Shown here one piece after another: positions 26,865-63,907 of a stretch of DNA of 64,000 nucleotides. The stretch spans positions 80,230,001 through 80,294,000 of the forward strand of contig NW_024704742.1 in assembly GCF_018977255.1 (NCBI RefSeq), read 5' to 3'. Source of the DNA: Callorhinchus milii (taxonomy: Eukaryota). The notes under the pieces are model-generated. The model had not been told where the DNA came from. It saw only the letters and a program-made list of their open reading frames with translations, and did no database searches. Position numbers and translations under genes: made by a program. Within the stretch, counting starts at the first letter, position 1. Each line of letters opens with the position of its first letter.

Positions 26865-29447
26865 CATAACATGTAGGAGCAGGAGTAGACCATTCGGCCC
26901 TTCAAGCCTACTCCGCCATTCAATCATGGATAATCTTCCAATCTAACTCCAGCTAATAACCTGACCCTGCCTTATCCCCATATCCCTTAATCCCTTTTGC
27001 AATAAGAAATCTATCTATCTCAGTCTTGAATATGTTCAAGGACTGAGCATCAACAGCCCTTTGGGGTAGTACGTTCCATACATTCACCACCCTTTAAGTG
27101 AAGAAGTTCTTCCTCAACTCAGTGCGAAAGGGCTGGCCTCTGATTTTAGGGTTGTGACCCCTGGTTTTAGTTTCTCCAACCAGGGGAAACAATCTCCCAC
27201 TATCTACTCTATCATGCCCTTTGATGATCTTATAGGTTTCTATAAGATCCCCTCTAATTCTTCTATATTCTAGAGAATATAGGCCCAAATTGGTCAGCCT
27301 ATCCTCGTAACTCATTCCCTTCATACCTGGCACTGACTTAGTAAATCTACGCTGCACCCCCTCCAAGGCAAGTACATCCTTCCTTAAATGAGGAGACTAA
27401 AACTGGACACAGTATTCCAGGTGTGGTCTCACCAGGGCCCTGTACAGTTGCAGCAAGACTTCCCTACACTTATACTCTAATCCTTTCATAATGAATGTTA
27501 ACATACCGTTTGCCTTCCTAATCACTTGCTGCACCTACAGACTAACCTTCTGTGATTGGTGTACAAGGACACCCAAGTCCCTCTGGACACTAACACATTC
27601 CAATCTCTCCCCTTTTAAAAAATAACCCGCTCTACTGTTTTTGCTACCTGGGTGGATGACTTTGCACTTCCCTACATTATACTTCATCTGCCACCTACCT
27701 GCCCAATCACCTAACCTATCTATGTCGCGCTGCATTTTTGTAATGTCGTCCTCTGTGTTGGAACTTCCTCCTACTTTGTATCATCCGTGAATTTAGATAT
27801 ATTAGTTTCGATGTCCTCATGTAGATCGTTGATGTAGATGGTAAATAGCTGAGGCTGTTAGAAAATCCAAATAAGAGACACTCGCTCGAATGGACTCCTA
27901 ATTTCTGCGAGTACCACGGCCACCGTCCCAACTATTTACTAGTTACGGTCATACCGGACTCATAAACACGTCAACTGCCGAGTGTACTAATTCATAGTAT
28001 CCTGCCGAATCCCAAATTGTTAGAAAATAAAATCAGCCAAATCTGTAAGGAAATAAGGCTAATTCCTCTAACCAGATATCAGACTGTTTTATTATTATTC
28101 GTTCGTTATTCCCCAATATCCCGATGGGTCAGACCAAAGGCCGGTACAATCAACAGATCTTGTAACAGAATAATAGCAGCGTAGATAGCTTGAGTTCAAC
28201 ACTGTGTCTTTCCAGCACACAAGCTTGATTCTTCATGCTTTCAGTCTTCTTGCTTACAGCTTTCAATCTTCCATCTAATATCCTCAATCTTAGTGTTTCC
28301 AGCTCTCAGTCTTCCATCTCCCGTATCCTTGTCTCCGCGATGGCCCCGTACACAAAGTTATCGGAACTCTTATACCGATGTTCGTCCAATCATGGTGCGG
28401 ACATTAGATCACCTGTCGAAATCATGCCGGGTTCACGTGAACACCTCATGGGGTGTATGTGCCTCACACACATACATATTGTCCTTAAGTCCCCTGTTAT
28501 CTGATCTAATTGTCTAAGATAGAGGATTGATCAGTTTAGGGTTGTATCTGGTGCTCATTATTTTGTAGTGTGGGATCATTAGTACATTCCTTTTAAGTGA
28601 CTGGTTATTTCTTATCAGTATCCCGGGATGGTACCAAGGCCCTCTAGTTTAAGCAACTTGCTCATTAGCTGCTATTCTTGAGGGTTGCCTTCTGTCGGTT
28701 GGCCCTGTCAGAATCTAGCGACTTATTGCTCAGTCGAGATCCAGTGTCGACCGGTATCTTGGACCGTTATCTCTGTGGGCGTGTTGTCATTTACTGATAA
28801 GAGGTGACCCCCTGCCCCTGTCCGTTATTCTTTCAAAAACAGAGAAAACCAGATGAGTCCTATCCCATGACAGTCAGTCCAGTTGCCCCCCACACTTAAC
28901 TTAAAAGTTAACCCATTCACAACATCTATTATGATTCTAACATTATACAAAAAGTGTATATTCTAACAAGACCCAAGGACTTATCCTTGTGGCACTCCAC
29001 TAGTCACATCCCGCTAATCCGAAAAGGACCCGTTTATTCCTACTCTTTGTTTCCTACCCGTTAACCATTCCCCAAACCACGTTAATATGCTCCCCCCAAT
29101 TCCATGGGCCCTTATCTTTTGGACTAACCTTTTATATGGCACCTTATCGAATGCCTTCTGGAAGTCCAAACAGACCACATTCACTGATTCACCCTTATCT
29201 AGTTTACTGGAAATGTCCTCAAAAGACTCTATAAGATTTGTCAAACATGACTTCCCTTTTGTAAAGCCGTGTTGACTTGGCCTAATTATATTGTGCTCTC
29301 CTAAATACCGCACTACCACATCCTTAATCAACCATTCTAAAATTTTTCCTATCACTGATGTGAGACTAATTGGCCTATAGTTCCCCATCTTTTCCTTTCC
29401 ACCTTTTATAAATAGTGGTGTGACATTTGCGATCTTCCAATCCCCCC
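26865..29447 (-). mobile_element. CR1 LINE (RT to 3' end), interrupted by an LTR insertion at 27856-28968
   Basis: [23 protein letters not shown] (29014-29469) and MQRDIDRL..., EGVQRRFTK.... Sequence on either side of the LTR is colinear CR1. Confidence 0.92.
27856..28968 (-). mobile_element. LTR (28018-28968) plus PBS-like site and ~160 bp leader, LTR-retrotransposon/ERV remnant
   Basis: TG...CA ends with inverted termini TGTTAGAA/TTCTAACA; imperfect 4-bp TSD AGGC/AGAC; close inverted homologue of 50813-51850. Confidence 0.85.
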
Positions 29448-37515: not shown

Positions 37516-37519
37516 AAAA

Positions 37520-38030
37520 AACAACAACAACAAGATTCCATTTATAGAGCGCCTTTCAGGTCGGGAGGACGTCCCAAGGCTCTGGACAGTTGAGTCACGA
37601 CCCAAGCAGGGTGGAAATGGTTAGGGTGAGGGAAGGGAAGGGAGGGAGCGAGGAGGGGGTAGAGAGTCGAGAGGGGAGCTGAAGGCACGGTTGAAGAGAA
37701 AAGTCTTGAGACCGACCTTGAAGGAGGAAAGGGAGGAGGCGGTGAAGGCACTGGGGGATAGAGAGTTCCAGAGCCTCGGGGCTGAGAGGTTGAAGGCCCG
37801 GCCACCGATGGTAGGGCGGTTGGGGCGGGGGATGTGGAGCAGACTGGAGCCAGAGGAACGGAGGGTACGGGCAGGTAAATAGGGGATAGTAGGTCGGAGA
37901 GGTAGGAGGGAGCAAGGCCATGAATGACCTTGTAGGTGTGGATGAGGATCTTAAATTCGATCCTCTGGGGGATGGGGAGCCAGTGGAGGCGAGCGAGGGT
38001 GGGAGTGATGTGGTCGCAAAGCCTGGTGCG
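37520..38030 (-). mobile_element. L2 LINE 3' end (left arm of the head-to-head structure)
   Basis: [23 protein letters not shown] on the minus strand; (AAC)n tail at 37520. Confidence 0.92.
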
Positions 38031-39278
38031 GTCGACCATGCTATCCTCCTCCACCGCTTGTCCTCCCACCTAAACCTTCAAGGCCCTGTCCTTGAGTGGT
38101 TTAGGTCGTACCTCTCTCACCGTCTTCACTTTGTCTCCACAAATGGCTTTTCCTCCAGTCCCCGCACTGTCTCGTGCGGTGTCCCTCAAGGCTCTGTCCT
38201 CGGTCCCCTCCTTTTCACCCTCTATATGCTCCCCCTTGGTGACATCATCCGCAGACATGGGGTTAACTTCCACATGTATGCGGATGACACCCAACTCTAC
38301 CTTTCCTCCTCTACCCTCAACTCCACGACCACCGATGTCCTGACAGCCTGCCTGTCCGACATCGAGTCCTGGACGAGAGACAACTTTCTTCAGCTCAACG
38401 TGCGCAAAACTGAGGCCCTCCTGATTGGCTCACGTCAGCGCCTCCGCACCTCAGGCGCTGACAGCATCAGCATCCAAGGCTGCACTCTCCACCTCTCAAA
38501 GCCAGTCAGGAACCTCGGGTTCTGTTCGACCCTGAGCTGTCCTTTCTCCCCCATATCCGCGCCACAACTGGCACCGCCTTCCATCACCTCCGGAATGTCG
38601 CCAGACTACGGCACTACCTCACCCCTCACGCTGCTGAAACTCTGGTCCACGCCTTTATCACCTCAAGGCTGGACTATGGGAACTCTCTCCTCGCCGGCCT
38701 TCCCGCCACCTCCCTCCACAAGCTGCAGGTCATTCAGAACTCTGCAGCTCGTGTACTGTCCCGCACCAGGCTTCGGGACCACATCACTCCCACCCTCGCT
38801 CGCCTCCACTGGCTCCCCATCCCCCAGAGGATCGAATTCAAGATCCTCACCCTCACCTACAAGGCCATTCACGGCCTCGCTCCCTCCTACCTCTCTGACC
38901 TACTATCCCCCTACCTACCTGCCCGTACCCTCCGTTCCTCTGGCTCCGGTCTGCTCCACATCCCCCGCCCCAACCGCCCTACTATCGGTGGCCGGGCCTT
39001 CAGCCTCTCAGCCCCGAGGCTCTGGAACTCTATCCCCCAGTGCCTTCGCCGCCTCCTCCCTTTCCTCCTTCAAGGCCGGTCTCAAGACCTTTCTCTTTGA
39101 CCGAGCCTTTAGCTCCCCTCTCGACTCTCTACCCCCTCCTCGCTCCCTCCCTTCCCTCCCCTCACCCTGACCATTTCCCCCCTTCTCGGGTCCTGACCCA
39201 ACTGTACAGCGCCTTGGGACGTCCTCCCGACGTGAAAGGCGCTCAATAAATGGAATCTTGTTGTTGTTGTTGTTGTTG
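38029..39278 (+). mobile_element. L2 LINE, RT to 3' end (right arm)
   Basis: [27 protein letters not shown]; frameshift near 38520; (TTG)n tail. Confidence 0.95.
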
Positions 39279-48455: not shown

Positions 48456-48534
48456 CTCAACTGATGCATCTTATGGGGTCTTTTATGCTTACATCTGATC
48501 CGTCCCTGGCATTTGAGCACAAAAAAGATAACCA

Positions 48535-49062
48535 AACACAAAATACTGCAGATGCTGAAAATCTGAAAACAAAAACAGAACACTCAGCAGATCAGGCTAT
48601 GGAGAAAGGAAAGTGAGTCAACATTTCGGGTCCACAACCCTTCATCAGAAATGGGGCATGTTGGGACGGAGAAGCTGTTAAGGGCTAACAGAGAGGGGGG
48701 AGGCAGGACAAGGAAGACAAAGGAGAAAATAGGGTAGAGGACAGGGGATGATGGGTTAAAGCGGTGTTAAGGATGCAAAACAAAGGGGGGGATTGCAACA
48801 AAACAGGGGAATAGAGGTGGTAATACCTCGGGGAAAAAAGAGTGGGAGGAAAAGAACTTGCAACAAAACAGGCAGATCAGGGAGAGAAAAGGTGTGTCTG
48901 GGACCCAAATGATGTGATAATGGTCACAGAAGAGCAGGATGGGGAAGGTGAGCTGCTATGGTCTGAAATTGTTGAAATCAATATTGAGGCCAGAGGGCTG
49001 TAAAGTCCCTAACAGATAAATTAGGTGCTGTTCCTTGAGCTTGCGCTGTGGTTCATTGGAGT
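48535..49062 (-). mobile_element. Penelope-like element, GIY-YIG C-terminus and 3' region
   Basis: Minus strand of 48960-49060 reads SNEPQRKLKEQHLIYLLGTLQPSGLNIDFNNFR. Confidence 0.8.
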
Positions 49063-49142
49063 GAGGTCCTGTAGCTTGGGACGTCCTCCTGACGTGAAAG
49101 GCGCTTTATAAATGGAATCTCGTTGTTGTTGTTGTAGCTCGT

Positions 49143-49354
49143 AATCCCTCCAAAACCAAAAACAATAATAAATTGGTCATTTTCAATCTACGACTGTTTG
49201 TGGGACATTGCTGTGCGCAATTGGCTGCCGCGTTCACCCACAAATATACAGTCAATTCACTCTACAGTGTGTTCTGTGAAGTGCATTGGGATGTCCTCCC
49301 GATGTGAAAAGCGCTATATCAAATGCAAGGATTATTATTATTATTATTATTATT
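49143..49354 (+). mobile_element. SINE family 1, 3' two-thirds
   Basis: Near-identical to 36630-36844; its (ATT)n tail abuts an antisense L2 tail. Confidence 0.9.
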
Positions 49355-52300
49355 ACATTTATAGAGCGCCATTCACATCGGGAGGACGTCCCAAAGCGCT
49401 GAACAGTCAGATGTCAGGGTCCGAGCATGGGGGAGGGGTTGTGTAGGGGTGAGGGAAGGCAGAGAGGTGGGAGGGTGACCAAAGGCACGATTGAAGAGAA
49501 GGGTCTTGAGCCAGGACTTCAAGGAGGCAAGGGAGGAAGCGAGGCGAAGGGACCGTGGGATGGAGTTCCAGAGTGTGGGGGCAGAGAGGCTGAAAGCCTG
49601 GCCACCGATGGTAGGACGGGTCGGAGGGAGACATGGAGCAGGCCGGAGCCCGCTGAATGGAGGGAGTGGGCAGGTTGGTAGGGAATCAGCAGGTTAGAGA
49701 GGTAGGAGTGGGCAAGACCATGGATGGCCTTAAGGGTGAGGACGAGGATCTTGAACTCGATCCTCTGGGGGATGGGGAGCCAGTAGAGTCGGGCGAGGGG
49801 TGGGAGTGATGGGATCATGGAGGCTGGTGCATGAAAGTACACGAGCTGCAGAGTTTTGAATGGTCTGCAGCTTGTGAGGGGAAGACTTGGGAAGGCCAAT
49901 GAGGAGGGAATTCCCTTGATGTGACGAATGTATGGGTGAAGGTTTCGGCAGCCTGAGGGGTGAGGGAGTGGCGGAGTCTGGCAATGTTGTGGAGGTGGCG
50001 CGGATGTGGGGGAGAAAGGACAGTTGAGGGTCAAACAAGGCACCCAGGTCCCTGACTGGTTTAGTGAGGTTGAATGTGCAGTCGTGGAGGCTGATGCTGC
50101 CAGCGCCCGGGGTGCGGAAGCACTGGTGTGAGCCAATCAGGAGGGCCTCGGTCTTGCTGACATTGAGTTGGAGAAAGTTGTCCCTCGTCCAGGACTTGAT
50201 GTCAGACTGGAAGTCGGTCAGGACGCCAGTAGTCCTGGAGTTCAAGGTGGAGGCAGAGAGGTAGAGTTGGGTGTCATCTGCATACATGTGGAAATTTACC
50301 CCATGTTTGCAGATGATGGCACCAAGGAGGACCATGTGGGGGGTGAAGAGGAGGGGACCAAGGACAGAGCCCTGAGGAACACCGCACAAGATGGTGCGGG
50401 CTGAAGGAGAAGCTGTTTGCCGCGATGAAGTGGAGGCGGTGTGAAAGGCAGGACCTGAACCAGTCAACGACAGAAGCTTGAAGATTGAGGCGGGAGGAAA
50501 GGAGGAAGATTGAGTGGTCCACGGCGTCAAAGACGGTGGAGAGGTCGAGGAGGACGAGGAGGCAGAGGGAGCCCTGGTCATAGATGGTCAGGATGTTGTT
50601 TGTGACCTTGACCAGAGCAGTTTCCGTGCTGTGGGCAGCATGGAAACCTGATTGGAGGGGATCATGGAGGGAGTGAGAGAAGAGGGAAGAGCGAAGCTGG
50701 GAGGCAACGGTTCTCTCAAGGAACTTGGATAGGAAAGGGAGATTTGAGATGGATCGGTAGTAGATAGCCGTGATGGGTCAAGGGAAGGTTTCTTCAAGGT
50801 GAGGGTGATAATTGTTAGAATATACACTTTTTGTATACTGCTAGAATCATAATAGATGTTGTGAATGGGTTAACTTTTAAGTTAAGTGTGGGGGGCAACT
50901 GGACTGACTGTCATGGGATAGGACTCATCTGGTTTTCTCTGTTTTTGAAAGAATAACGGACAGGGGCAGGGGGTCACCTCTTATCAGTAAATGACAACAC
51001 GCCCACAGAGGTAACGGTCCAATATACCGGTCGACACAGGATCTCGACTGAGCAATAAGTCGCTAGATTCTGACAGGGCCAACCGACAGAAGGCAACCCT
51101 CAAGAATAGCAACTAATGAGCAGGTTGCTTGAACTAGAGGGCCTTGGTACCATCCCGGGATACTGATAAGAAATAACCAATAAAAGGAATGTACTAATGA
51201 TCCCACACCACAAAATAATGAGCATCAGATACAACCCTAAACTGATCAATCCTCTATCTTAGACAATTAGATCAGATAACAGGGGTCTTAAGGACAATGT
51301 GTATGTGTGTGAGGCACATACACCCCATGAGGTGTTCACGTGAACCCGGCATGATTTCGACAGGTGATCTAATGTCCGCACCATGATTGGATGAACATTG
51401 GTATAAGAGTTCCGATAACTTTGTGTACGGGGCCGTCCCGGGTCGTGGAGACAAGGATACGGGAGATGGGGCCATCCCGGGCTGTGGAGACAAGGATACG
51501 GGAGATGGGGCCATCCCGGGCTGTGGAGATAAGGGTACGGAGATGGAAGACTGAGAGCTGGAAACACTAAGACTGAGGATATCAGATGGAAGATTGAAAG
51601 CTGTAAGCAAGAAGACTGAAAGCATGAAGAATCAAGCTTGTGTGCTGGAAAGACACAGTGTTGAACTCTTGAACTCGAGATATCTATAGTGGTGTTATTC
51701 TGTTATAAGATCTATTGGTTGTACCGGCCTTTGGTCTGACCCATCGGGGTATTGGAGAATAACGAACGAATAATAATAAAATAGTCTGATATCTGGTTAG
51801 AGGAATTAGCGTTATTTCCTTACAGATTTGGCTGATTTTATTTTCTAACATAATGGCTGTTTTCAGGGAGGAAAGGACAGTGCCAGATGACAGGGAGAGG
51901 TTAATGATTTTGGCTAGTATTGGGGCAAGGAGGTGGAGCTGGGATTTAAGGAGAGGAGTTGGGATGGGGTCAAGGGAGCAGGTGGTGGGCTTCATGGAGT
52001 TATGGTGGTGAAGACAGAGGAGGAGTTGACAGGTTCAAAGGTGTGGAAGGAGGGGTGGATAATTGTCAGATGCATAATTGTGTAGGTTGGGGGTAGGGAG
52101 GCGGTGGAAGTTGGAGGGGCAGTGGCAGCTATGCGGATTCCCTCAATTTTGGACTTGAGGAAGTCCAGCATTTTCTCTCAGTGAGAGTTGGAGGAAAGAA
52201 TCTACAAGGCATGACGAGGAGGGTGGAGGAGCCAGTTGGTGGTGGAGAACAGGAGCCTGGGGTTGCCCTTTGCCTCCAGGATTAACCTGGAATAGAAGGA

Positions 52301-53820
52301 TGATTTGGCCGAGGCAAGAGTAGAGCGGTAGGTCTTGATGAGGTCCAGCCAGATGTGAACCGTTAGGCCAGATTTGAGCCAAGTGCATTTAGCAGACCGC
52401 ACCTGGCCCATAAGCGAGCAGAGGTGGCTGGTGAACCAGGGTGAGGATTGGGAATAGGAAGCAGTTTGGGAGGTGAGGGGGTCAAGGACGTCGAGTGTGG
52501 TGGAGAGGGGGCCGTGGAGAAGAGTAAGCTCAGCAATTGGGTTGGTGCGAGAGGTGGGCCAGAGGGGAGGAGTTCAGAGGACTCCATGGCAGCGGAGAGG
52601 CACTGCGGGGAGATCTTCTTCCACGGGCAGTAGAAGATGAAGGTACGTTTGGAGGCAGTGGGGAGAGGGATATAGGAGTTGAGGGAAATGAAATGGTGGT
52701 CAGAGATGGCCTTGTCAGTGATGGTGACATCCGAGATGCTGAGGCCCCGGGTGATCACAAGGTCAAGCGGGTGACTGTGGGTGTGGGTAGCAGAGTGGAT
52801 GTGGAGGGAGAGGTTGAGAGAGGAGAGGAGAGAGGAGGAGTCTGAGGAGATGGAGCAGGAGCTGGTGAAGTGGAGATTGAAGTCACCTACGATGATGAGG
52901 TGGTCAGAGCAGAGGCAGAGAGAAGCAAAGTGGGTGGAGATGTCAGAGATGAAGGTGGGGGAGGATTTTTGGGGGCGATAAAGTAAGAGGATCTTTAGAG
53001 AGAGATGGGAGGGATGGCAGAGGGTAAGGCGTTCGAAAGAAGGGAACGAGCCGGTGGAGTAGGGGGATAGGGCAAGTGATGCCCTGGAGGGCCACACCAC
53101 CGCCACAATGGCTGGTGTGTGGGGCATGGTGTTAGGTATAGCCACGTGGTGTGGCCTCAGTGAGGGCGAAGGTGTCACGTGGGTGATCCAGGTTTCTGTG
53201 AGGGCCATAATATCAAAATTCTCACCACTGCCAGGGTCCTATTGGAGATCAAGTGCACATTTTGAAGGCCAATGTGGAGTGGACAGATGGCAGGGGGATG
53301 TGTGGGATGGGAGGAGGTAGTGGATTGGTTGGCAGGGAGGGTGGGGATGCAGATGAGGGAGGAGAGGTTAGACCTCGGGGTCTGGGTCCGGGGTGGCTTG
53401 CGGCGGTAGTGGGGAATGGGACAGTCGATGTGGCTGCTGCTGGACAACCAACGCTGAGTGCCATGATGAGCCCGGCGGAGGATTCCCAGGCTGGAGCAGA
53501 GTGAGGCAGTGGTGGGGGGGGGGGGGGGGGTCAAGCAGAGATAGGAGGTGGGGAGGGCGGAGAGAGAGAGCAGGACAGAGCGGGAAAGTTGCAGGCAGGG
53601 GGGCATTTTGAGGGAGGGCCAGTTTGGGTCAGGGGCGGCAGCCAAGATGCGCACTCTGGGACGAGAGTCGATGGGTTTAGTGGGACATTGTCAGCCTGCA
53701 GGAGGCTGTGGCGCAGAGTGGGGAGGGCGCTCATTGTGGTTAGCAACGAGCAGCCTGCAGGGGAAGGAAGGGGAGGGAGACAGACTGAGGATGGGAGGGA
53801 GGGAGACACTGGTATAAGCT
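49355..53820 (-). mobile_element. Near full-length, decayed L2 LINE (APE + RT, no evident ORF1), interrupted by a solo LTR
   Basis: MALTETW, IIVGDFN, HPLDLVIT, ISDHH (APE); [28 protein letters not shown] (RT); 3' motif at 49355-49400. Confidence 0.92.
50813..51850 (+). mobile_element. Solo LTR, 1038 bp
   Basis: TGTTAGAA...TTCTAACA termini; perfect 4-bp TSD TAAT (50809-50812 and 51851-51854); TATA-like TATAAGA near 51403; AATAAA near 51775; the flanking L2 rejoins seamlessly. Confidence 0.92.
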
Positions 53821-53859
53821 ATACTGTACTGTACCCACTATCAGATTCAAACCTGGTGG

Positions 53860-53915
53860 GCGGAAGTGACGTCACCCAGAATGGTGGGAAAATCTGGAAG
53901 TCCAAAATGGTGGCT
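53860..53915 (+). promoter_or_regulatory. ETS-CRE composite plus YY1-like motif cluster
   Basis: GCGGAAGTGACGTCAC, a second GGAAGT and CAAAATGGTGGC within about 55 bp. Confidence 0.4.
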
Positions 53916-54099
53916 CCCCGGCCAGGTAATGGCTGCCGCTCGATCTCCGAGACCCCGGCATCAGACATTCGCCCCACCTCAAGGTCCATGAGACCCTCGG
54001 CCCAACCTGCAACTACCGGGCCCTGCCTTTGGCTAACACTGGTCCCGATCCACGGGAGACCAGCCCTGTGACTCCCTGCTGCTGCCTGACTTACCTTTC

Positions 54100-54280
54100 G
54101 TGTTGAAACAGTGCAGGAGACTGTGGATGGAGAGGTCAGAGTGTGAGTGGGAGGGAGAGTTCAAATGCAAGAAACCGGAAGCTCAGAGTTGTGTTTGCGG
54201 ACAGAACGGAGGTGTTCGGCAAATCGGTCACCCAATCTGAGTTTCACCTCTCCAATGTAGAGAAGACCACATCATGAGCT
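54100..54280 (-). mobile_element. Penelope-like element, GIY-YIG endonuclease fragment
   Basis: Minus strand reads CGLLYIGEVKLRLGDRFAEHLRSVRK...LLHCFN. Confidence 0.85.
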
Positions 54281-54393
54281 AGCTAGGAGAGGGATTACTT
54301 AGCTTACGGTGGGACACACACATGTGCAGGTGTGAGTGATGTGTTAGTGAGTATGAGTCTCTTTCTGTTCGTGTGAGCCAGGCTGAGGAGCAT

Positions 54394-54448
54394 ATGGAGG
54401 GTATGATGTTGCTGTGTGTGAGTTTGTCCATCATCATCTGTCTAACAG
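54394..54448 (+). CDS. F11R: JAM-A/F11R-like gene, candidate first coding exon copy A (signal peptide)
   Basis: ATG..ACAG|gttagt encodes MEGMMLLCVSLSIIICLT plus 1 nt (phase 1). Joins in frame to the exon at 62911 to give ...CLT-VHPALG-YEV, a hydrophobic signal peptide with an A-x-G cleavage motif. Confidence 0.7.
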
Positions 54449-54542
54449 GTTAGTGTGTGTTATATAGTGTACTGATATACTGTGTATATTCCTCTCTCAC
54501 ACACACTGCGTGAGAGAGACTGTACTGATATCCTGTATATTA

Positions 54543-55640
54543 TGGAGTCCTGTAGCTCAGTGGTTGGAGCATTCACCTAGCAAGCGAGAGGACCTAAGTC
54601 CGATTCCCGGGAATGGTGAAACGGTAAGCAACAATAACTTGCACTTTTATAGCGCCCTCCATACAGGATAGCGTCTCAGAGTGCTTTCCTTAGGCAAGTT
54701 TCCTTACTCCACATGCATCGGTTTACCTAGCAGTAAATAGGAACCCGGTTGTTAGTCGATGTAATAATCCTTTCAGATAAAATAAAATAAATAACAATAA
54801 TAATTTGCTTACTCTTTCTATAACTGTTTGTGGGCATTGCTGTGTGCAATTGGCTCCACCTTACTAAGCCAGTCGAGAACCTTGGCATCTTGTTTGACCC
54901 TCAACTATGCTTTCTACTCCACATCTGTGCCATGACCCACTCTGCCTTCACTCACCTCCGCAACATCACCCAAATCCACCACTGCCTCTCTCCGCGAGCC
55001 GTCAAAACACTCATCCACACATTTATTACATTTAGGCTCGACTATGCCAACTCCCTGCTTGTCGGCCATCTGAAATCTTCCCTCCACAAGCTGCAGATCA
55101 TTCAGAACTTTACAGCTCATGTCCTCTTCCGCACCAGGCTCCGTGACCCCATCACCCCCACCCTCGCCTGGTTCCACAGAGGACAGAGTCTTTGTGTGTG
55201 TCTTTCTCTCGGTTTTTGTGGGTGTCTCTCTCAGTCTCTCTCATCCGCACCTTCAAAGCCCTCCATGGCCTTGCTCCTTCCTACTTGTGACCTGTTAACT
55301 CCATATCAATCTGTCCGCTCTCTCTGCTCAGCAGGCTCCAGCCCGTTCGGGGGCCTTCAACCTCTCTACCCCGACCCTTTGGAAATCCATCCCACAGTCC
55401 TTTTGCCTCGCAACATCCCTTGCCTCTTTCAAGGTACACATCAAGAACCTATTCTCTGATCTCACCTTCATCCACCTTCCTGCCCTCCACCCCTCCTGAT
55501 CCCAATCCTCTGCCCAGGTCCAAATCCCTGACTGTCCAGGGCTTTGGGACGTCCTCCCGGGGTGAAACCCACCATACAAACACCATACATTTGTTGTTGT
55601 TGATAAGACTATATCAAATGCAAGGATTATTATTATTATT
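54543..55640 (+). mobile_element. Long-variant family 1 SINE carrying a nested L2 3' fragment (about 54855-55600) and a short antisense L2-type tail (about 54628-54690)
   Basis: SINE head at 54543, core to 54855, L2 ORF2 C-terminus (RLDYANSLL, KLQIIQN), (TTG)n, then the SINE tail resumes at 55601. Confidence 0.8.
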
Positions 55641-56621
55641 ATATTCCCCTCTCACACACTCACAGCCCTGTCAGAGCGAGACTGAGATACATACTGTATA
55701 CTGGGTATACTTCCTTAGTCTGTGTATACTGTATACAAAAACCGAGAGAAAGACATACACAAAGACTGAGAGAAAGAGAGAGAGAGACTACAAGACAGTT
55801 TAATGTTCATTAACGTAAAATATTATTAGGGGTTTTGTTAGAGACAGAGACACAGACTAAGGAAGTGAGTGCGACTAAGGAAGAGTATACAGTATATACT
55901 CCCCTCTGACATCCAAACAGCCTGAGAGAGACTGATATACCAATTTTATTCCCCTCTCACACACACAACCTGAGAGATTGAGAGAGAAACTGAGAGAGTG
56001 AGAGACAGATGAACTCCCTTCTCTTTTCGAAGCCAAAAGAGAGAGAAATGGAGCGAGAGAGAGGAGAGAAACTCGCTTCTCATTTTCAAAAGAGAAAGAG
56101 CATGGGAGAGAGGGATACTCCCTCTTTTTTTTCGAGAGAATTCACCTTTGCACTCACTTCCTTAGTCAGTCTCTCTGTCTCTAAGAAAACCCCTAATAAT
56201 ATTTTCCGTTAATGAACATTAAAGTGTCTTGCAGTCTCTCTCTCTCTTTCTCTCAGTCTTTGTGTGTGTCTTTCTCTCGGTTTTTGTGGGTGTCCCTCTC
56301 AGTCTCTCTCTCACACTCTCTGTCTCTATCTACTCTGTCTCTCTCTCTCAGTCCCACACTCTCTCTCAGTCTCTCTGTCCGTCACTCTGAGATGGAGCGA
56401 GAGATGGAATGTGAGAGTTTCATTTGAGTATTAATGTAAAATATTATTTTGAAGTTTTGTCAAGAGAGAAAGAGAAAACATGGGAGGTTATCTGAGAGAA
56501 GGTGGGGTTGTCTGGGAGAGGGAGGGGCTAGCTTGCGGAGGGATACATACCTGTGCAGGTGTGAGTGAGTGTGTTAGTGAGTGTGAGTCTCTATTTTAGA
56601 GTGAGCCGGACTGAGGAGGAT

Positions 56622-56673
56622 ATGGAGGGTGTGAAGTTACTGTGTGTGAGCTTGTCCATCATCTGTCTAACAG
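56622..56673 (+). CDS. F11R: JAM-A/F11R-like gene, candidate first coding exon copy B (signal peptide)
   Basis: ATG..ACAG|gttagt encodes MEGVKLLCVSLSIICLT plus 1 nt (phase 1). Paralogous to 54394-54448 and in frame with the exon at 62911. Confidence 0.75.
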
Positions 56674-56711
56674 GTTAGTGTATGTTATATATACTGATGT
56701 ACTCCCCTCTG

Positions 56712-57720
56712 ATACACACATACAGACTGAGAGACACACACACATACAGATTGAGAGACACACACACATACAGACTGAGAGACACGCACATACAGACTGA
56801 GAGACACACACATACAGACTGAGAGACACACACATACAGACTGAGAGACACACACATACAGACTGAGAGACACACACATACAGACTGAGAGACACACACA
56901 TACAGACTGAGAGTCACACACACACATACAGACTGAGAGACACACATACAGACTGAGAGACACACACATACAGACTGAGAGTCACACACACACATACAGA
57001 CTGAGAGACACACATACAGAGACACACACACATACAGACTGAGACACACACATACAGACTGAGACACACACATACAGAGACACACACACATACAGACTGA
57101 GAGACACACATACAGACTGAGAGACACACATACAGACTGAGAGACACACACACACAGACTGAGACACAAACACACACAGACTGAGACACACACACACACA
57201 CAGACTGAGACACACACACACACACAGACTGAGAGACACACACAGACAGACTGAGAGACACACACACAGACTGAGAGACACACACAGACAGACTGAGAGA
57301 GACACGCACACAGACTGAGACATACACACACAGACTGGGAGAGACACACACACAGACTGGGACACATACACAGACAGACTGAGAGAGACACACACACAGA
57401 CTGAGACATACACACACAGACTGGGAGAGACACACACACACAGACTGGGACACATACACAGACAGACTGAGAGAGACACACACACACAGACTGAGATACA
57501 CACAGACTGAGAGACACGCACACACAGACTTGGACACACACACACAGACTGAGAGAGACACACACATACAGACTGAGAGAGAGATACACACACACACACA
57601 CAGACTGAGAGAGACACACACATACAGACTGAGAGAGACACACACACACACAGACTGAGAGAGAGAGAGACACACACACACACACACAGACTGAGACACA
57701 CATATAAACAGAGAGAGAGT
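56712..57720 (+). repeat. CA/GA-rich minisatellite, unit about GACTGAGAGACACACACATACA
   Basis: About 1 kb of ~20-26 bp units with variable (CA)n length. Confidence 0.95.
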
Positions 57721-58429
57721 TTAATTTGCATTAACCTAACTCTGTCTGTCCAGGGCCTTGGGATGTCCTCTTGTCGTGAAAGGTCTTATACAAATGTAAT
57801 TTTGTTGTTGTTGACACATACACACACACAGAGACTGAGACACACACACAGACTGAGAGAGAGCTTAATTTGCATTAACCTAAAATATTATTTTGAGGTT
57901 TTCTCAGAGAGACAGACAGAAATTAAGGAAGTAAGTGCAAAGCGGGCAAAGGTGACCTCTAACTCTCTCTAAAAGAGAAGAGGATTTCTCTCTCTTGGAA
58001 GACATGGGAGTTTCTCTTTCTGTCTTTCTTCGTTGCTTTCTTTCTGTCTGTTTTTCTCTCTTGCTCTCTCTGTCTCTCTCACTTTCGAAAACGCAAGGGA
58101 GTTTCTTTCTTTGTCGCTCTACTTCATTCTGTTTTTCTCTCTCGCTCTCTCGCTTTCGAAAAGAGAAGGCAGTTTCTCTCCTGGTTTCGAAAAAATAAAG
58201 GGAGTTTCTCTCTCCATGTTGTGGTTTCACTTCTCCATAAATAGTTTCGGGGCGGAGGGAGAAAGAGAGGGGGAGGAAGGCAGAGAGAGGAAGGGAGGGA
58301 GAGAGAGAGACAAAGAAAGTGAGAGACAGGAAGAGAGAGGGGAAAAGAAATAGAGGGAGAGGCAGAATGAGAGAGAGAGAGAGAGTCTGGTTAAACCAGT
58401 TTTTCACAAGTTAATCAGTAACTAATCAC

Positions 58430-59738
58430 CCAGTCCACGCCTTAATCTCTGCCTTGTTTGTGTCAAAGCTTACACTCATTCTCTCTATTTCTCTCTCGCT
58501 TCCCTCGTTGTGTAACCACCACCCAACACACACAGTCTCCCGTAGCTCGCAGTCTGATGCTGCCTCGCTGATCGCTCGCTCCCAGTCTCTGTGTGCGTGT
58601 TTTGGCTGCCGCTCCAACCCGAGCCGCTCCCCCTGAAAATGTTCCTGCTCCCATCCCCGCATTCCGCTACTCCCGCTCTGTCCTTCTCTCCCACCGCCCT
58701 CCTTCTTCTCTCCTGGACCCCACCATTACCTCGCTCTGCTCCAGCCTGAGCATCCTCCGCCAGGCACATTGTGGCTCCCGGTGTTGGTTGTCCAAGAGCA
58801 GCCGCCCCAACTGTCCCATCGCTCACTCTCTCCACAGCAACCGCCTTCAAAAGGCAAACACCCCTTCCCCCTCCCCTATCCATACCCTCTCCAATTCTCC
58901 CCATCCTCGAACTCCATGGTCACTTCTGCCCCATCGCGTCAAATCCTCTCTATACTACTCCCTCCATCACCCACCCCCACCAGCAAAACTATCTGCATTT
59001 CCCTCCAAAATGTCCGCTCCCTCTCTAACAAAGCCCTTACTATCCATGACCTCATTCTGGATGAGCACATTGATATTCTTGGGCTTACAGAAACCTGACT
59101 CTTTCCCCCAGTGATCCTATCAACTTCGTTGCAGCCTCCCCTCCTGGCTACACTTTTCCCCACACCCTCTGCCTCAACTAACATGGTGGCGGGGTGGCCC
59201 TCAACTTCCAAGCTTCCCTTGGTCTATCCCACTATTCCTCTAGCTGTTTCTCCTTCTTTGAGCACCTCACCCTCTACCATCCCTCCTCTCTCTCCCTCAA
59301 AATCTTCCTAGTTTACTGCCACCCCTCCCTCAAACCTCCTGGCTCCTTCCTCACTGATATCTCCTCTCATCCCGATCCCTCTGACCTAAACACATGCTCA
59401 TAATGGGTGATTTTGATCTCCACCTAAACTCCCCTTGCACCACCTCCTCAGATTTCACTGACCTCCTCTCCTCCTTAAACCTCACCCTCCACATCAAGTC
59501 GCCGGCCCACAACCATGGCCATTCCCTCGACCCAGTTATCACAAATGGCCTTGACATTTCCAACCTGTCTATCATGGACAAGGCCATCTCAGACCACTTT
59601 GTCATCTCCCTCTCCTCCCGCAGACCCCTCCCCTCTTCCAAGCCCTCCAACATTATTTTCCACCTCTGGAAAAAGCTTCCACCTGAGCCCCTCATAAATT
59701 CCCTCTCTTCCTTGGACATCCACTCCCTCTGGCCCTCC
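58430..59738 (+). mobile_element. L2 LINE 5' half (leader and APE endonuclease)
   Basis: [33 protein letters not shown] and ISDHF motifs. Confidence 0.88.
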
Positions 59739-60925
59739 AAGGGGGAGCATATAGAGGGTGAGGAGGAGGGGACCGAGGACAGAGCCCTGAGGGACACCAC
59801 ACAAGACAGTGCGGGGGCTGGAGGAAAAGCCGTTAGTGGAAACAAAATGGAGACGGTGGGAGAGGTACGACCTTGAAGATTGAGGTGGGAGGACAAGTGG
59901 TGGAGGAGGATAGTGTGGTCGACCGTATCGAATGCGGCCGATAGGTCGAGGAGGACGAGGAGGCAGAGGGAGCCCAGGTCGCAGATGGTCAAGATGTCAT
60001 TAGTGACCTTGATCAGGGCGGTTTCTGTGCTATGGGCAGCACGGAAACCCAACTGGAGGGGTTCAAATAGTGAATGGGTGGAGAGGAAAGAGCGCAGCTG
60101 GGAGGCGACGACTCTTTCGCGAATCTTGGACAGGAAGGGAAGGTTGGAGATGGGCCGGTAGCTTGGTAGCTGCGGTGCATCAAGGGAGGGTTTTTTCAAT
60201 ATGGGAGTGATGGTGGCAGTTTTGAGGGGAATGGGAACAGAGCCAGAGGAGAGGGACAGGTTAATGGTGTCTGTCAGAAGTGGGGCAAGGAGGTGGAGCT
60301 GGGAGATAAGGAATGGAGTGGGGATGGGGTCCAGGGAGCAAGTGGTGGGTTTCAAGGACAGGATGAGGTTGGTGACAGAGGGTGGGGAAACGGGTTTGAA
60401 GGTGTGTGGGGGGGATGGGTAGGAGTCGGAGTTTGGGAGGGAAGGGGTGCGGGGGTGGATGGAAGTTGGAGGGGCAGTGACTGCCGAGCAGATTCCCTTG
60501 ATTTGCGATTCAAGGAAATCCAGCATCTCCTCACTGTGAAGGTTGGAGGAGATGACCTGTGCGGATTATCCTGCAGTAGAAGGACGACTTGGCCGAGGCT
60601 AGAGTGGAGCAGTAAGTTTTGAGGAGGTCCAGCCAGATTTGCCGGTGGACCATTGGGCCAGATTTGAGGCAGGTGCATTCACCGGCCCGCACCTGGGTCT
60701 TCAGTGAGCGGAGGTGGGTGGTGAACCAGGGAGAGGAGTGAGAGTAAGAGACAGTACGGGAGATGATGGGGGCAAGAGTGTCGAGTGTGGAGGAGAGGGC
60801 GTTGTGGAGGAGGGTGAGAGCAGAAGAGGGGTCAGTGAGGGATGAAGGCCAGAGGGAGAGGAGTTCAGAGGACTCCAACGTAGCGGTTAGAGAGTTCGAA
60901 GAAGTGCTCGATTTTTTCACCTGAA
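59739..60925 (-). mobile_element. L2 LINE central (RT) fragment, antisense
   Basis: [51 protein letters not shown]. Confidence 0.92.
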
Positions 60926-60929
60926 AAAT

Positions 60930-61980
60930 TGAAAACATCTACTTGGCTGCATTGTACTCTTCCTCCCACCCCACCCAGACCATCCACGCCGCCTTTTCCC
61001 TCTGCCATGGCTCCTGCCACTACCCCCTCCTTACACTCATTTGCCACCATTTCTCCCTCCTCCCTCTCAACCACAATCACCTGGGTGAAGTTCACTACCT
61101 GCTACTTTGAGCCCCTCCCCACCCAGCTGGTGGTCACTCAACTCCCCCTCCTCTTCCCCCTGCTGACTGACACGTTCAACCAGTCTCTCTCCTCAGTCTC
61201 TGTTCCACTCTCGCTGAAAACCGCTGTCATCAAACCCCTCCTCAAAAAACCCAACCTCGATCCCTCTAATCTCTCACACCACCATCCCATCTCCAACCTA
61301 ACTTTTCTTGCCAAAGTTCTGGAACGCATTGTTGCAGGTCAACTTCTGTCACACCTCTCCCTCCTCGAGCCCTTGCAGTCTGGTTTTCACGCTGCCCACA
61401 GCACAGACAATGTTTGTCAAAGTCACAAATGACATTCTCTCTATCTGTGACCAGGGCTCCCTCTGCCTCCTGGGTCTCTCTGCCGCGTTTGACATAGACA
61501 ACCACACCATCCTCCTCCTCTTCCGTCTCTCCTCCCTCATCTACTTTAGTGGGACTCGCATGGTTCGAGTCCTATTTAACCAACCTCCTCCATTTCATCT
61601 CAGCAAATGGTTTCTCCTCCTGCCCCTGACCGGTCACCTGCGGGGTATCTGAGGGCTCCATCCTCGGCCCTCTTCTTTTCCTCATCTATATGCTCCATCT
61701 AGATGATATCATCCGCAGACACGAGGTAAGCTTCCACATGTATGTGGGTGACACGCAAATCTACTTTGCCTCCTCCAGCATTGACTCCAGGTCCGCTGAT
61801 GTTCTATCAGCTTGTCTGGCAGACATCAAGGCCTGGATGAGTGCAAACTTCCTGCAGCTTAATGTTGACAAGACGGAAGCCATACTCCTTGGCTCCCATC
61901 AATGTCTTCACTCCTTTGAATCTAAACTCCTGAACCTCCCTGGACTCTCCTTCAGACTCACTGAACCAGTGCGCAACCTA
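60930..61980 (+). mobile_element. Older L2 LINE RT fragment
   Basis: LLKKPNLDP, QSGF, LSAAFD, YVGDTQIY, WMSANFLQLN. Confidence 0.88.
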
Positions 61981-62011
61981 CGCTCCGGTTCGAGCGCCAC
62001 TGTTTAGCTCT

Positions 62012-62310
62012 GTGGAGTCCTGTAGCTCAGTGGTAAGAGCACTTGTTTTGCAAGCGAGAGACCTGGGTTCGATTCCCGGCAGGTTGAAACCTTGGGCAAG
62101 TTTCCTTACTCCACACACCTGATAATAATCCCTCAAGAAAACAAAACAATATTCAATTGGTCATTTCAATCCACGACTCTTTGTGGGACACTGCTGTGTG
62201 CAATTGGCTGCCGCGTTCCCTCCACAATTCACTTTACAGTCTATTCTGTGAAGCGCTTTGAGACGTCGAGAAGACATGAAAAGTGCTATATCAAATGCAA
62301 GGATTATTAT
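62012..62310 (+). mobile_element. tRNA-derived SINE, family 1
   Basis: A box and B box (GGTTCGATTCC), core and tail. Confidence 0.9.
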
Positions 62311-62910
62311 AATAATGCATAATTATTATGCTACCCTGCACGGAGGGCACTATACAAGTGCAAGTTGTTGTTGTTTGCTATGCAGGTGCTTGCTCCCCCC
62401 ACATTGTTACTCTCTTCTCTAACCCCATTGCCCGCCCTCTCTCTGTCCCTCTTAGTCTGTCTGTCTCTCTCTCACACACACTATCTCACAAACAACTCTC
62501 TGTTCCAACTATTGTGTGTTTGCTGTTGCTAGCTTGCCCCACACTGCTGCTCTCTACTCTAACCCCATTCCCCCACTCTCCCCCTCGGCCTCCCCCTCGC
62601 CCCACCCCCCTCAGCCTCGCCCCGCCGCCCTCGGCCTCTCCCACTCCCCGTCTCGCACTCGCGCGCTTGGCCTCTGTTCAGGATGTAGGTTAGAGATCTG
62701 TCATGGTGGGGTTAGAGAAGGGAGATTCTCTTTCTCTCCCAGTGTCCTGGCTGACAGATAAAACAACATTAAACACACAGTCACTACACTTTACATTGAA
62801 ACATGGATTTAGTGTGAGATGGATAGAGACTTGAGTAAGTCCGTGGATGGATTAAGGTGTGAGAGAGAGATGGATAGAAACATAAGTAATAATTCTTGTT
62901 ATATCTACAG

Positions 62911-62976
62911 TTCATCCTGCGTTGGGATATGAAGTTTCGACAGCTAATTCAGTGGTTCGCTCCCAACCAGGAAAAT
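62911..62976 (+). CDS. F11R: JAM-A/F11R-like exon 2 (end of signal peptide, start of Ig V domain)
   Basis: ctacag|TTCATC...GAAAAT|gtgagt, 66 nt, phase 1-1. Reads (V)HPALGYEVSTANSVVRSQPGK(S) and splices in frame into the next exon. Confidence 0.85.
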
Positions 62977-62989
62977 GTGAGTAACAAAC

Positions 62990-63755
62990 CCATCTCCCTC
63001 TCCTCATCTATCTCTCATACTTTCTCTATCTGTCTCTCATACTTTCTCTTCTCTCTCTCGCTCTCTGCCCTCTCATTTCTTTGTCTCTCTTCTCGCTCTG
63101 AGTCTCTCTCACACACTCTATCTCTCTCTCAGCCTTACAGTCTCTCTCTGTCTCTCTCTCTCTCTCTCTCTGTCTCACACTTGTTCTCTTTTAGTCTCTC
63201 TCTCCCTCACTCACGCACACTCTCTCTCGTCCCAGCGCTGGAGCTAAGCTGCACATACACGGCTGATTTCGATTCTCCGAGGATCGAGTGGAAAAGAAGC
63301 GATTTGCAAGGATCAACAACATTGATATATTATGAAAAACAAGTAACAGGTGAGTCTCTCTCTCTCTCTCTCAAACACTCTCTCCGTTTCTCGCACTCAC
63401 ACATTCTCTCTCACCATCTCCAGCACTCTCACACTCTCTGTCTATCGCTCTCACACATAATCTCTCTCCCGTCTCTTGCTCACACACTCTCTCTGTCTCT
63501 CTTTATCTCCAGCTCTCTCACACTCTGTCGCTCTCAGACTCTCTTTCTGTCTCTCTCTCTCACTCAGTCTCCCTCTCTGTCTGAAACATTTTCTCTCCAT
63601 ATCTTGCTTTCACACTCTGACACACACACACACACACACTCTCCCTCTTTCACTGTTTCTTGCTCTCACCCACTGTCTTTCATTCTCATACTTTTTCCCC
63701 GTCTCACTTCTCAATCAGTCTCACATTCTTCCTTCTCTCTCACACTTTATCTCTC
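62990..63755 (+). repeat. CT/CA-rich low-complexity introns 2 and 3 of the JAM-A-like gene
   Basis: Degenerate (CT)n and (CA)n tracts filling both introns. Confidence 0.85.
63236..63349 (+). CDS. F11R: JAM-A/F11R-like exon 3 (Ig V domain, first half)
   Basis: cccag|CGCTG...AACAG|gtgagt, 114 nt. Reads LELSCTYTADFDSPRIEWKRSDLQGSTTLIYYEKQVT, with the B-strand Cys, C-strand Trp and the JAM-family R(V/I/L)E dimerisation motif (PRIEWK). The CxYTxDF...DLxGSxTL pattern resembles fish JAM-A. Confidence 0.9.
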
Positions 63756-63760
63756 CACAG

Positions 63761-63907
63761 AGAAATTCAGAGAAAGATTCGAAGTTTACGACAAAGGAAT
63801 GCGTATAACTAATGCTGAACCCAGTGATAGCGGAGATTATATGTGTGAGGTCACAGCGGCCACTGGAAATGGATTTAATTCCGTTACCATTAAAGTGATT
63901 ATTGAAG
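63761..63907 (+). CDS. F11R: JAM-A/F11R-like exon 4 (Ig V domain, second half); gene continues beyond the window
   Basis: Polypyrimidine tract, ccacag|AGAAAT...GAAG|gtata, 147 nt. Reads EKFRERFEVYDKGMRITNAEPSDSGDYMCEVTAATGNGFNSVTIKVIIE, with the V-set DxGxYxC motif. Confidence 0.9.

Follow-up and report, generated by a model that had tools for sequence, protein, structure and literature searches.

A duplicated first exon in the elephant shark JAM-A gene: splicing joins the downstream copy to exon 2, and the upstream copy is probably a relic

The gene for JAM-A, short for junctional adhesion molecule A, of the elephant shark (Callorhinchus milii) carries two tandem copies of its first exon, named copy A (upstream) and copy B (downstream), within the 64,000-nucleotide stretch of contig NW_024704742.1 analyzed here (the window). 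Copy B is the working exon 1, which supplies the signal peptide and is spliced to exon 2. Copy A is probably a decaying relic, or a spare, left by an old local duplication. The features of the locus are listed in Table 1.

Table 1 Features of the JAM-A first-exon locus, in window positions.
Feature	Position	Strand	Remarks
Likely remainder of the Penelope-like element adjoining A, displaced by nested insertion	48530..49062	-	Frame continues where the fragment adjoining A stops
Nested repeat block upstream of A	49063..54104		Presumed LINE, SINE and LTR-like pieces; matches other repeats in the window
Exact 16-base ETS-CRE composite motif	53860..53875	+	Likely 5' end of a minus-strand LINE
Penelope-like GIY-YIG fragment adjoining A	54105..54283	-	GIY-YIG-like translation; an X1 contig spans the junction
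Copy A block (5' flank, exon 1A, intron start)	54283..54481	+	83% to copy B
Three upstream ATGs of A (54322, 54339, 54353)	54322..54376	+	Open for 5, 2 and 7 codons; B lacks ATGs at the corresponding sites
CAGGTG E-box of A	54327..54332	+	B counterpart at 56556-56561
Exon 1A, coding part, 55 nt	54394..54448	+	Phase-1 donor next; ATG with C at -3; n-region lacks Lys
Intronic SINE and LINE pieces downstream of A	54536..55640		Absent after B
Intron block after A	55753..55872	+	76% to 57816-57938 after B
Inverted copy of intron-1 sequence	56012..56287	-	Matches 57822-57942 and 58140-58214; 95% inverted repeat with 55735-55872
Additional partial intron-block copy, immediately upstream of B	56413..56473	+	82% to 57859-57916
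Copy B block	56512..56703	+	G-rich boxes at 56501 and 56520 unmatched in A
Exon 1B, coding part, 52 nt, the used first exon	56622..56673	+	Junction in an X5 contig; start of P0001 and P0002
22-base minisatellite	56714..57716	+	Expanded after B
Intron-1 sequence of unit B, also in unit A	57816..58214	+	
Exon 2 (signal peptide end, V-type Ig start)	62911..62976	+	
Exon 3 (V-type Ig, R-I-E dimer motif)	63236..63349	+	
Exon 4 (V-type Ig domain end)	63761..63907	+	

The gene is elephant shark JAM-A. Exon 4 is a 100% match to one database protein, junctional adhesion molecule A of Callorhinchus milii, and the window exons match residues 1-126 of the database protein P0001. Like vertebrate JAM-A (F11R), P0001 has one membrane span and two extracellular Ig domains, a V-type followed by a C2-like domain (Pfam V-set at 30-118 and Ig_3 at 132-213). 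Its closest solved structures are those of JAM-A (mouse-type 1f97, 1nbq, and 6gsi), and the R-I-E sequence of its first domain aligns with the R-V/I-E cis-dimer motif of 1f97 and 1nbq, the motif being taken as described in passages of PMC8755661. The C-terminus, encoded by an exon beyond the window, ends in FVV as in the named JAM-A matches and is of the type II PDZ-binding kind. In a midpoint-rooted JAM tree of 24 rows, taken from 121 matches, the query groups with 14 named JAM-A rows against nine JAM-B/C rows with a support of 100/99. The JAM-A identity, the exon structure and the common mature protein proposed in the initial annotation hold. Neither the JAM-A of another chimaera nor an A-type start was found among 38 matches in the 50% representatives, none of which exceeded 59% identity. 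The next matches of the full-length protein reached at most 52% among the 120 listed, and a search of shorter proteins for an A-type start had one candidate, which did not score.

The two copies align with 83.0% identity over 200 columns (E 4e-53), and no third copy of the block is present in the 64-kb window. Each copy contains a signal-peptide-like open frame followed by the same GTTAGT donor in phase 1, and both frames stay open across exons 2, 3, and 4, all of which are in phase 1. Alignment and frames thus bear out an earlier description of a block seen twice, with an ATG, a signal-peptide-like frame and one and the same phase-1 donor fitting exon 2 at 62911. The two copies of about 190 bp also lie where they had been placed, but the duplicated unit is longer and takes in blocks of intron 1. 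The single-codon coding indel reported between the copies is present as well; it sits in a CAT repeat with three units in one copy and two in the other, where slippage yields multiples of three, and its reading as a mark of selection was rejected on that ground. Divergence between A and B is 17% in the 5' flank (19 mismatches in 109 paired bases), 8% in the coding part (4 in 52) and 7% in the first intron bases (2 in 30), with 13 mismatches in 73 for the duplicated intron block. The statement that the non-coding flanks are the more changed is therefore right for the 5' flank, but the intron start is as conserved as the coding part. These are differences between A and B, and at each site either copy may be the one that changed. 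The final 17 bases of exon 1 do not differ between A and B. Identical runs of 17 and 25 bases were considered as special and rejected, for at 85% identity runs of these lengths turn up in 0.89 and 0.39 of trials, respectively.

Assembly error is excluded as the source of the second copy, both copies being present in a public run. In the run search, 4 of the 12 listed runs, of a kind not on record, hold copy A, with four runs from four samples of one study holding 0.82 of its 17 sampled words. No 26-base word is common to A and B, so that 31-base words distinguish the copies. None of the listed runs holding A is recorded as RNA, and eight runs guessed to be RNA hold next to none of the 17 words, a result not counted as evidence. 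Contigs of 4 of the 12 runs were mapped onto the stretch 54150-56700, which stops short of exon 2 and in which junctions show only as loose contig ends. In run X1, possibly related to the assembled sample, copy A is covered by contigs at 54220-54389 (one other letter) and 54377-54562 (no other letters), and copy B by a contig over 56298-56700 with no other letters. The first of these contigs bridges the junction of copy A with the Penelope-like fragment upstream. That two haplotypes were set in tandem by the assembly is extremely unlikely, even with A and B never found together on a single contig: the sequences are 17% apart with different flanks and so are not alleles, X1 carries both copies, each with its own flanks, and the words of A, distinct from those of B, recur in four samples. 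The candidate of a haplotype artefact was rejected on these grounds.

Splicing of copy B is directly observed. In run X5, a contig of depth 801 follows the window over 56615-56673, and its next 30 letters are those of 62911-62940, the start of exon 2. The kinds of the runs are guessed, but a join across a GT-AG intron marks a spliced product, and the junction from 56673 to 62911 that the initial annotation had proposed as a check is thus found. A 345-letter contig of run X8 matches 56582-56673 and runs on. In addition, the two proteins of the 90% cluster (P0001 and P0002) both begin with the B peptide, and the NCBI member of this cluster bears no isoform suffix. Two G-rich boxes upstream of B, at 56501 and 56520, which we take to be Sp/KLF-like, are missing from A or changed there. 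By hydropathy and alignment, the predicted cleavage site of the signal peptide follows residue 23 in B and residue 24 in A, at small residues where the solved JAM-A chains start aligning. This position lies inside exon 2, and the same mature protein would therefore arise from A or B.

The duplicated unit consists of exon 1 and part of intron 1, whose blocks are 76-82% alike. A second copy of exons 2-4 was not found in the window, including the interval from A to B, by protein (five queries) and DNA search. With intron-1 blocks duplicated and exons 2-4 single in the window, the event is a partial duplication, confined to exon 1 and the beginning of intron 1, that was later rearranged. That A is all that is left of a complete second JAM-A gene, its other exons deleted, is very unlikely indeed. 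Tandem copies of the F11R gene do occur, as teleost matches named 'F11 receptor, tandem duplicate 1' indicate, but second copies of exons 2-4 are untraceable in the A-B interval and in the rest of the window, and the sequence common to both units ends inside intron 1. A whole-gene duplication was rejected for the same reasons, no remains of downstream exons being found with the second copy in the window. The intron also shows local structures. The window stretch 55735-56287 holds a 138-base inverted repeat (95%) with 277 bases between its arms, and a LINE piece near 55187-55242 contains a portion of one arm as well. A short LINE 3' end at 57740-57813 lies between the two copies of a 71-base direct duplication (90%) that spans 57669-57883.

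The upstream context of copy A differs from that of copy B. Repeat-derived sequence occupies about 5.75 kb immediately upstream of A, a transposon block standing where upstream DNA like that of B would be. The fragment adjoining A, ending near 54283, has a GIY-YIG-like minus-strand translation, and its Atlas features match, at 0.90-0.91, clusters in which 17-20% of the members carry GIY-YIG. We take its family to be Penelope, and we likewise judge from Penelope motifs that it was once continuous with the piece at the far end of the block; Pfam returned 0 families on the Penelope-like pieces. The boundary proposed earlier for A is present. Over 48530-54283, one Penelope-like element is seemingly split by about 5 kb of nested insertions, presumably of LINE, SINE, and LTR-like kind.

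Several features of copy A suggest decay. Three upstream ATGs precede its coding part, one of them in the span that the X8 contig shows in the RNA of B. Position -3 of the ATG is C in A and G in B, a weaker context in A, and Lys is absent among the first six residues of A. An acceptor-like AG with a pyrimidine stretch occurs at 54381, 13 bases before the ATG of A, and is absent at the matching place of B. The CAGGTG E-box highlighted by the initial annotation is present once in each copy, yet the two represent one ancestral event, and the window contains 34 occurrences of CAGGTG or its reverse, which gives about a 6% chance per 110-base stretch. According to the part of PMC12617759 concerned with F11R, ZEB1 binds E-boxes of the human F11R promoter. 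Control by ZEB/Snail would be reasonable here, but a single CAGGTG is not evidence for such control.

The history that we favor runs as follows. An old local duplication would have copied exon 1 and part of intron 1 of JAM-A; a Penelope-like element would then have landed about 110 bases before the ATG of A, and A would have lost its working promoter and drifted since. Later SINE and LINE insertions, an inversion and the minisatellite may have reshaped both introns. Of the two readings offered in the initial annotation, the relic is the likelier, but as the product of a partial duplication, no second exons 2-4 being present in the window, and not of a whole-gene duplication; for two working promoters, the junction is seen for B only. 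The relic reading is an inference that rests on regulatory decay; A has no disabling lesion. Counted against it are the freedom from lesions, the identical donor, the good hydrophobic core, the ETS-CRE motif described below, and a trace contig of run X5. This contig (55830-56092, depth 3.8) lies in unique sequence between A and B and may be pre-mRNA, which could have begun upstream, an upstream transcript or DNA carry-over. As a relic, copy A would be an ordinary example of first-exon birth and death.

How far the intactness of A speaks for its use was assessed against neutral decay. Copy A is free of the disabling lesions that mark a pseudo-exon (stop, frameshift, lost ATG, lost donor), its nine-base donor is identical to that of B, and the 12-residue mean of its hydrophobic core is 3.02 against 2.62 in B. 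The difference between coding and non-coding divergence gives p = 0.23 and 0.12, and the coding changes comprise two replacement and two silent ones (p = 0.22). In simulations of neutral decay with eight settings (0.07-0.20 substitutions per site), the ATG, frame and GT survive in 0.20-0.50 of runs, and the probability of an intact exon with an identical nine-base donor is 0.05-0.31. For an intact exon with at most four substitutions, the probability is 0.18-0.39 at 0.07-0.10 changes per site, and 0.01-0.06 if A alone changed at 0.15-0.20 changes per site. The neutral expectation is not clearly exceeded, and no strong case for use of A follows from its intactness; A looks intact mainly because it is short. 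Given the low survival with an identical donor or at most four substitutions at the higher rates, past or present constraint on A, or gene conversion, is possible.

Copy A might instead be a minor alternative first exon, restricted to a tissue or stage, with its own start within the duplicated 110 bases, which would yield the same mature JAM-A under different control. We regard this as unlikely, though clearly the strongest of the alternatives. The open frame, the shared donor and the hydrophobic core would fit such a use, as would the conserved E-box region and a coding divergence of 8%, the 5' flank and intron block standing at 17-20%, but this conservation is not significant (p 0.12-0.23), the three upstream ATGs and weaker start context burden A, and both database proteins begin with B. 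Among the contig ends listed for four runs, the splice junction to exon 2 was observed for B only. Copy A has no contig cover at 54322-54493 in X5, X8, and X9, and X9 also has none at 56644-56700 in copy B; contigs drop rare forms, and the gap in A is not counted. Human F11R is said to have two promoters (one sentence of PMC3142510, citing another paper). If A is used, the duplication would alter only where and how much of the junction protein is made, since the differing part is cleaved off.

The closest precedent for such use is PEP1 of Arabis alpina, in which both copies, PEP1a and PEP1b, are used according to the 5' RACE and cDNA results given in PMC3527215. As there, a partial tandem duplication in the JAM-A locus takes in exon 1, its proximal promoter and some of intron 1, together with diverged upstream sequence and one shared exon 2; unlike there, the junction is seen for the downstream copy only. 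Tandem homologous first exons in the same phase ahead of shared exons are also the arrangement of UGT1, where each first exon carries a signal peptide and is spliced to constant exons. The variable first-exon arrays of UGT1, GCNT2, and PCDH evolve by birth and death with pseudo-exons and relics, as outlined in PMC1885805. These large arrays vary whole diversified domains, whereas JAM-A has two copies that code only for signal peptide and leave the mature protein unvaried. Among human tandem duplicated exon substitutions, 40 of 236 swap N-terminal segments, regions that include signal peptides, by the account in PMC9741552. Those are annotated and mostly ancient isoforms, unlike JAM-A, for which no A isoform is on record. 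The architecture is thus already known from Arabis PEP1 and UGT1. Among the papers listed in a literature search by title and abstract beginning, mostly outside subscription journals, none dealt with this locus.

A further source of expression for A could be the repeat block itself. The ETS-CRE composite motif was matched once, where 0.01 matches are expected by chance even with two mismatches, and lies 520 bases upstream of the ATG of A and about 410 before the A block. The LINE-like alignment extends to 53857, which makes the motif a likely part of the 5' end of a LINE oriented away from A. A site at 53904 is presumably YY1-like. No stretch similar to the ETS-CRE region was found elsewhere in the window. 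A consensus minus-strand donor near 54093 is likely part of the LINE 5' end.

A promoter carried by the LINE at this motif, firing away from the element, would produce a chimeric transcript reaching exon A, possibly spliced from a donor-like site at 53924 to the AG at 54381, which is preceded by 14 pyrimidines in 20 bases, and thereby skipping the three upstream ATGs of A. As described in PMC3464117 and PMC4555227, human proximal promoters are where this motif localises, and GABP and CREB bind it. Even so, this explanation is very unlikely: the motif is farther from the A block than the -120 to 0 range that PMC3464117 states for proximal motifs, the LINE is directed away from A, 11 ATGs lie between the motif and the ATG of A, and the motif was noticed post hoc. 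There is equally slim prospect that A, deprived of its own promoter by a transposon, has come under a GABP/CREB-type promoter from the nested LINE as a second, differently controlled route to the same mature JAM-A. If a transposon-borne promoter were true, two known routes to new promoters would be combined at one cartilaginous-fish locus.

In the remainder of the window, no neighboring gene was identified at 1-48500, where 67 open frames of at least 90 codons appear by eye to be repeat-derived or non-coding and short exons would escape. An LTR-like repeat is present in two copies of opposite orientation at 28018-28969 and 50812-51850 with 92-96% identity. The 3' region of a young LINE at 37517-39274 contains a 516-base inverted duplication of 93% identity.
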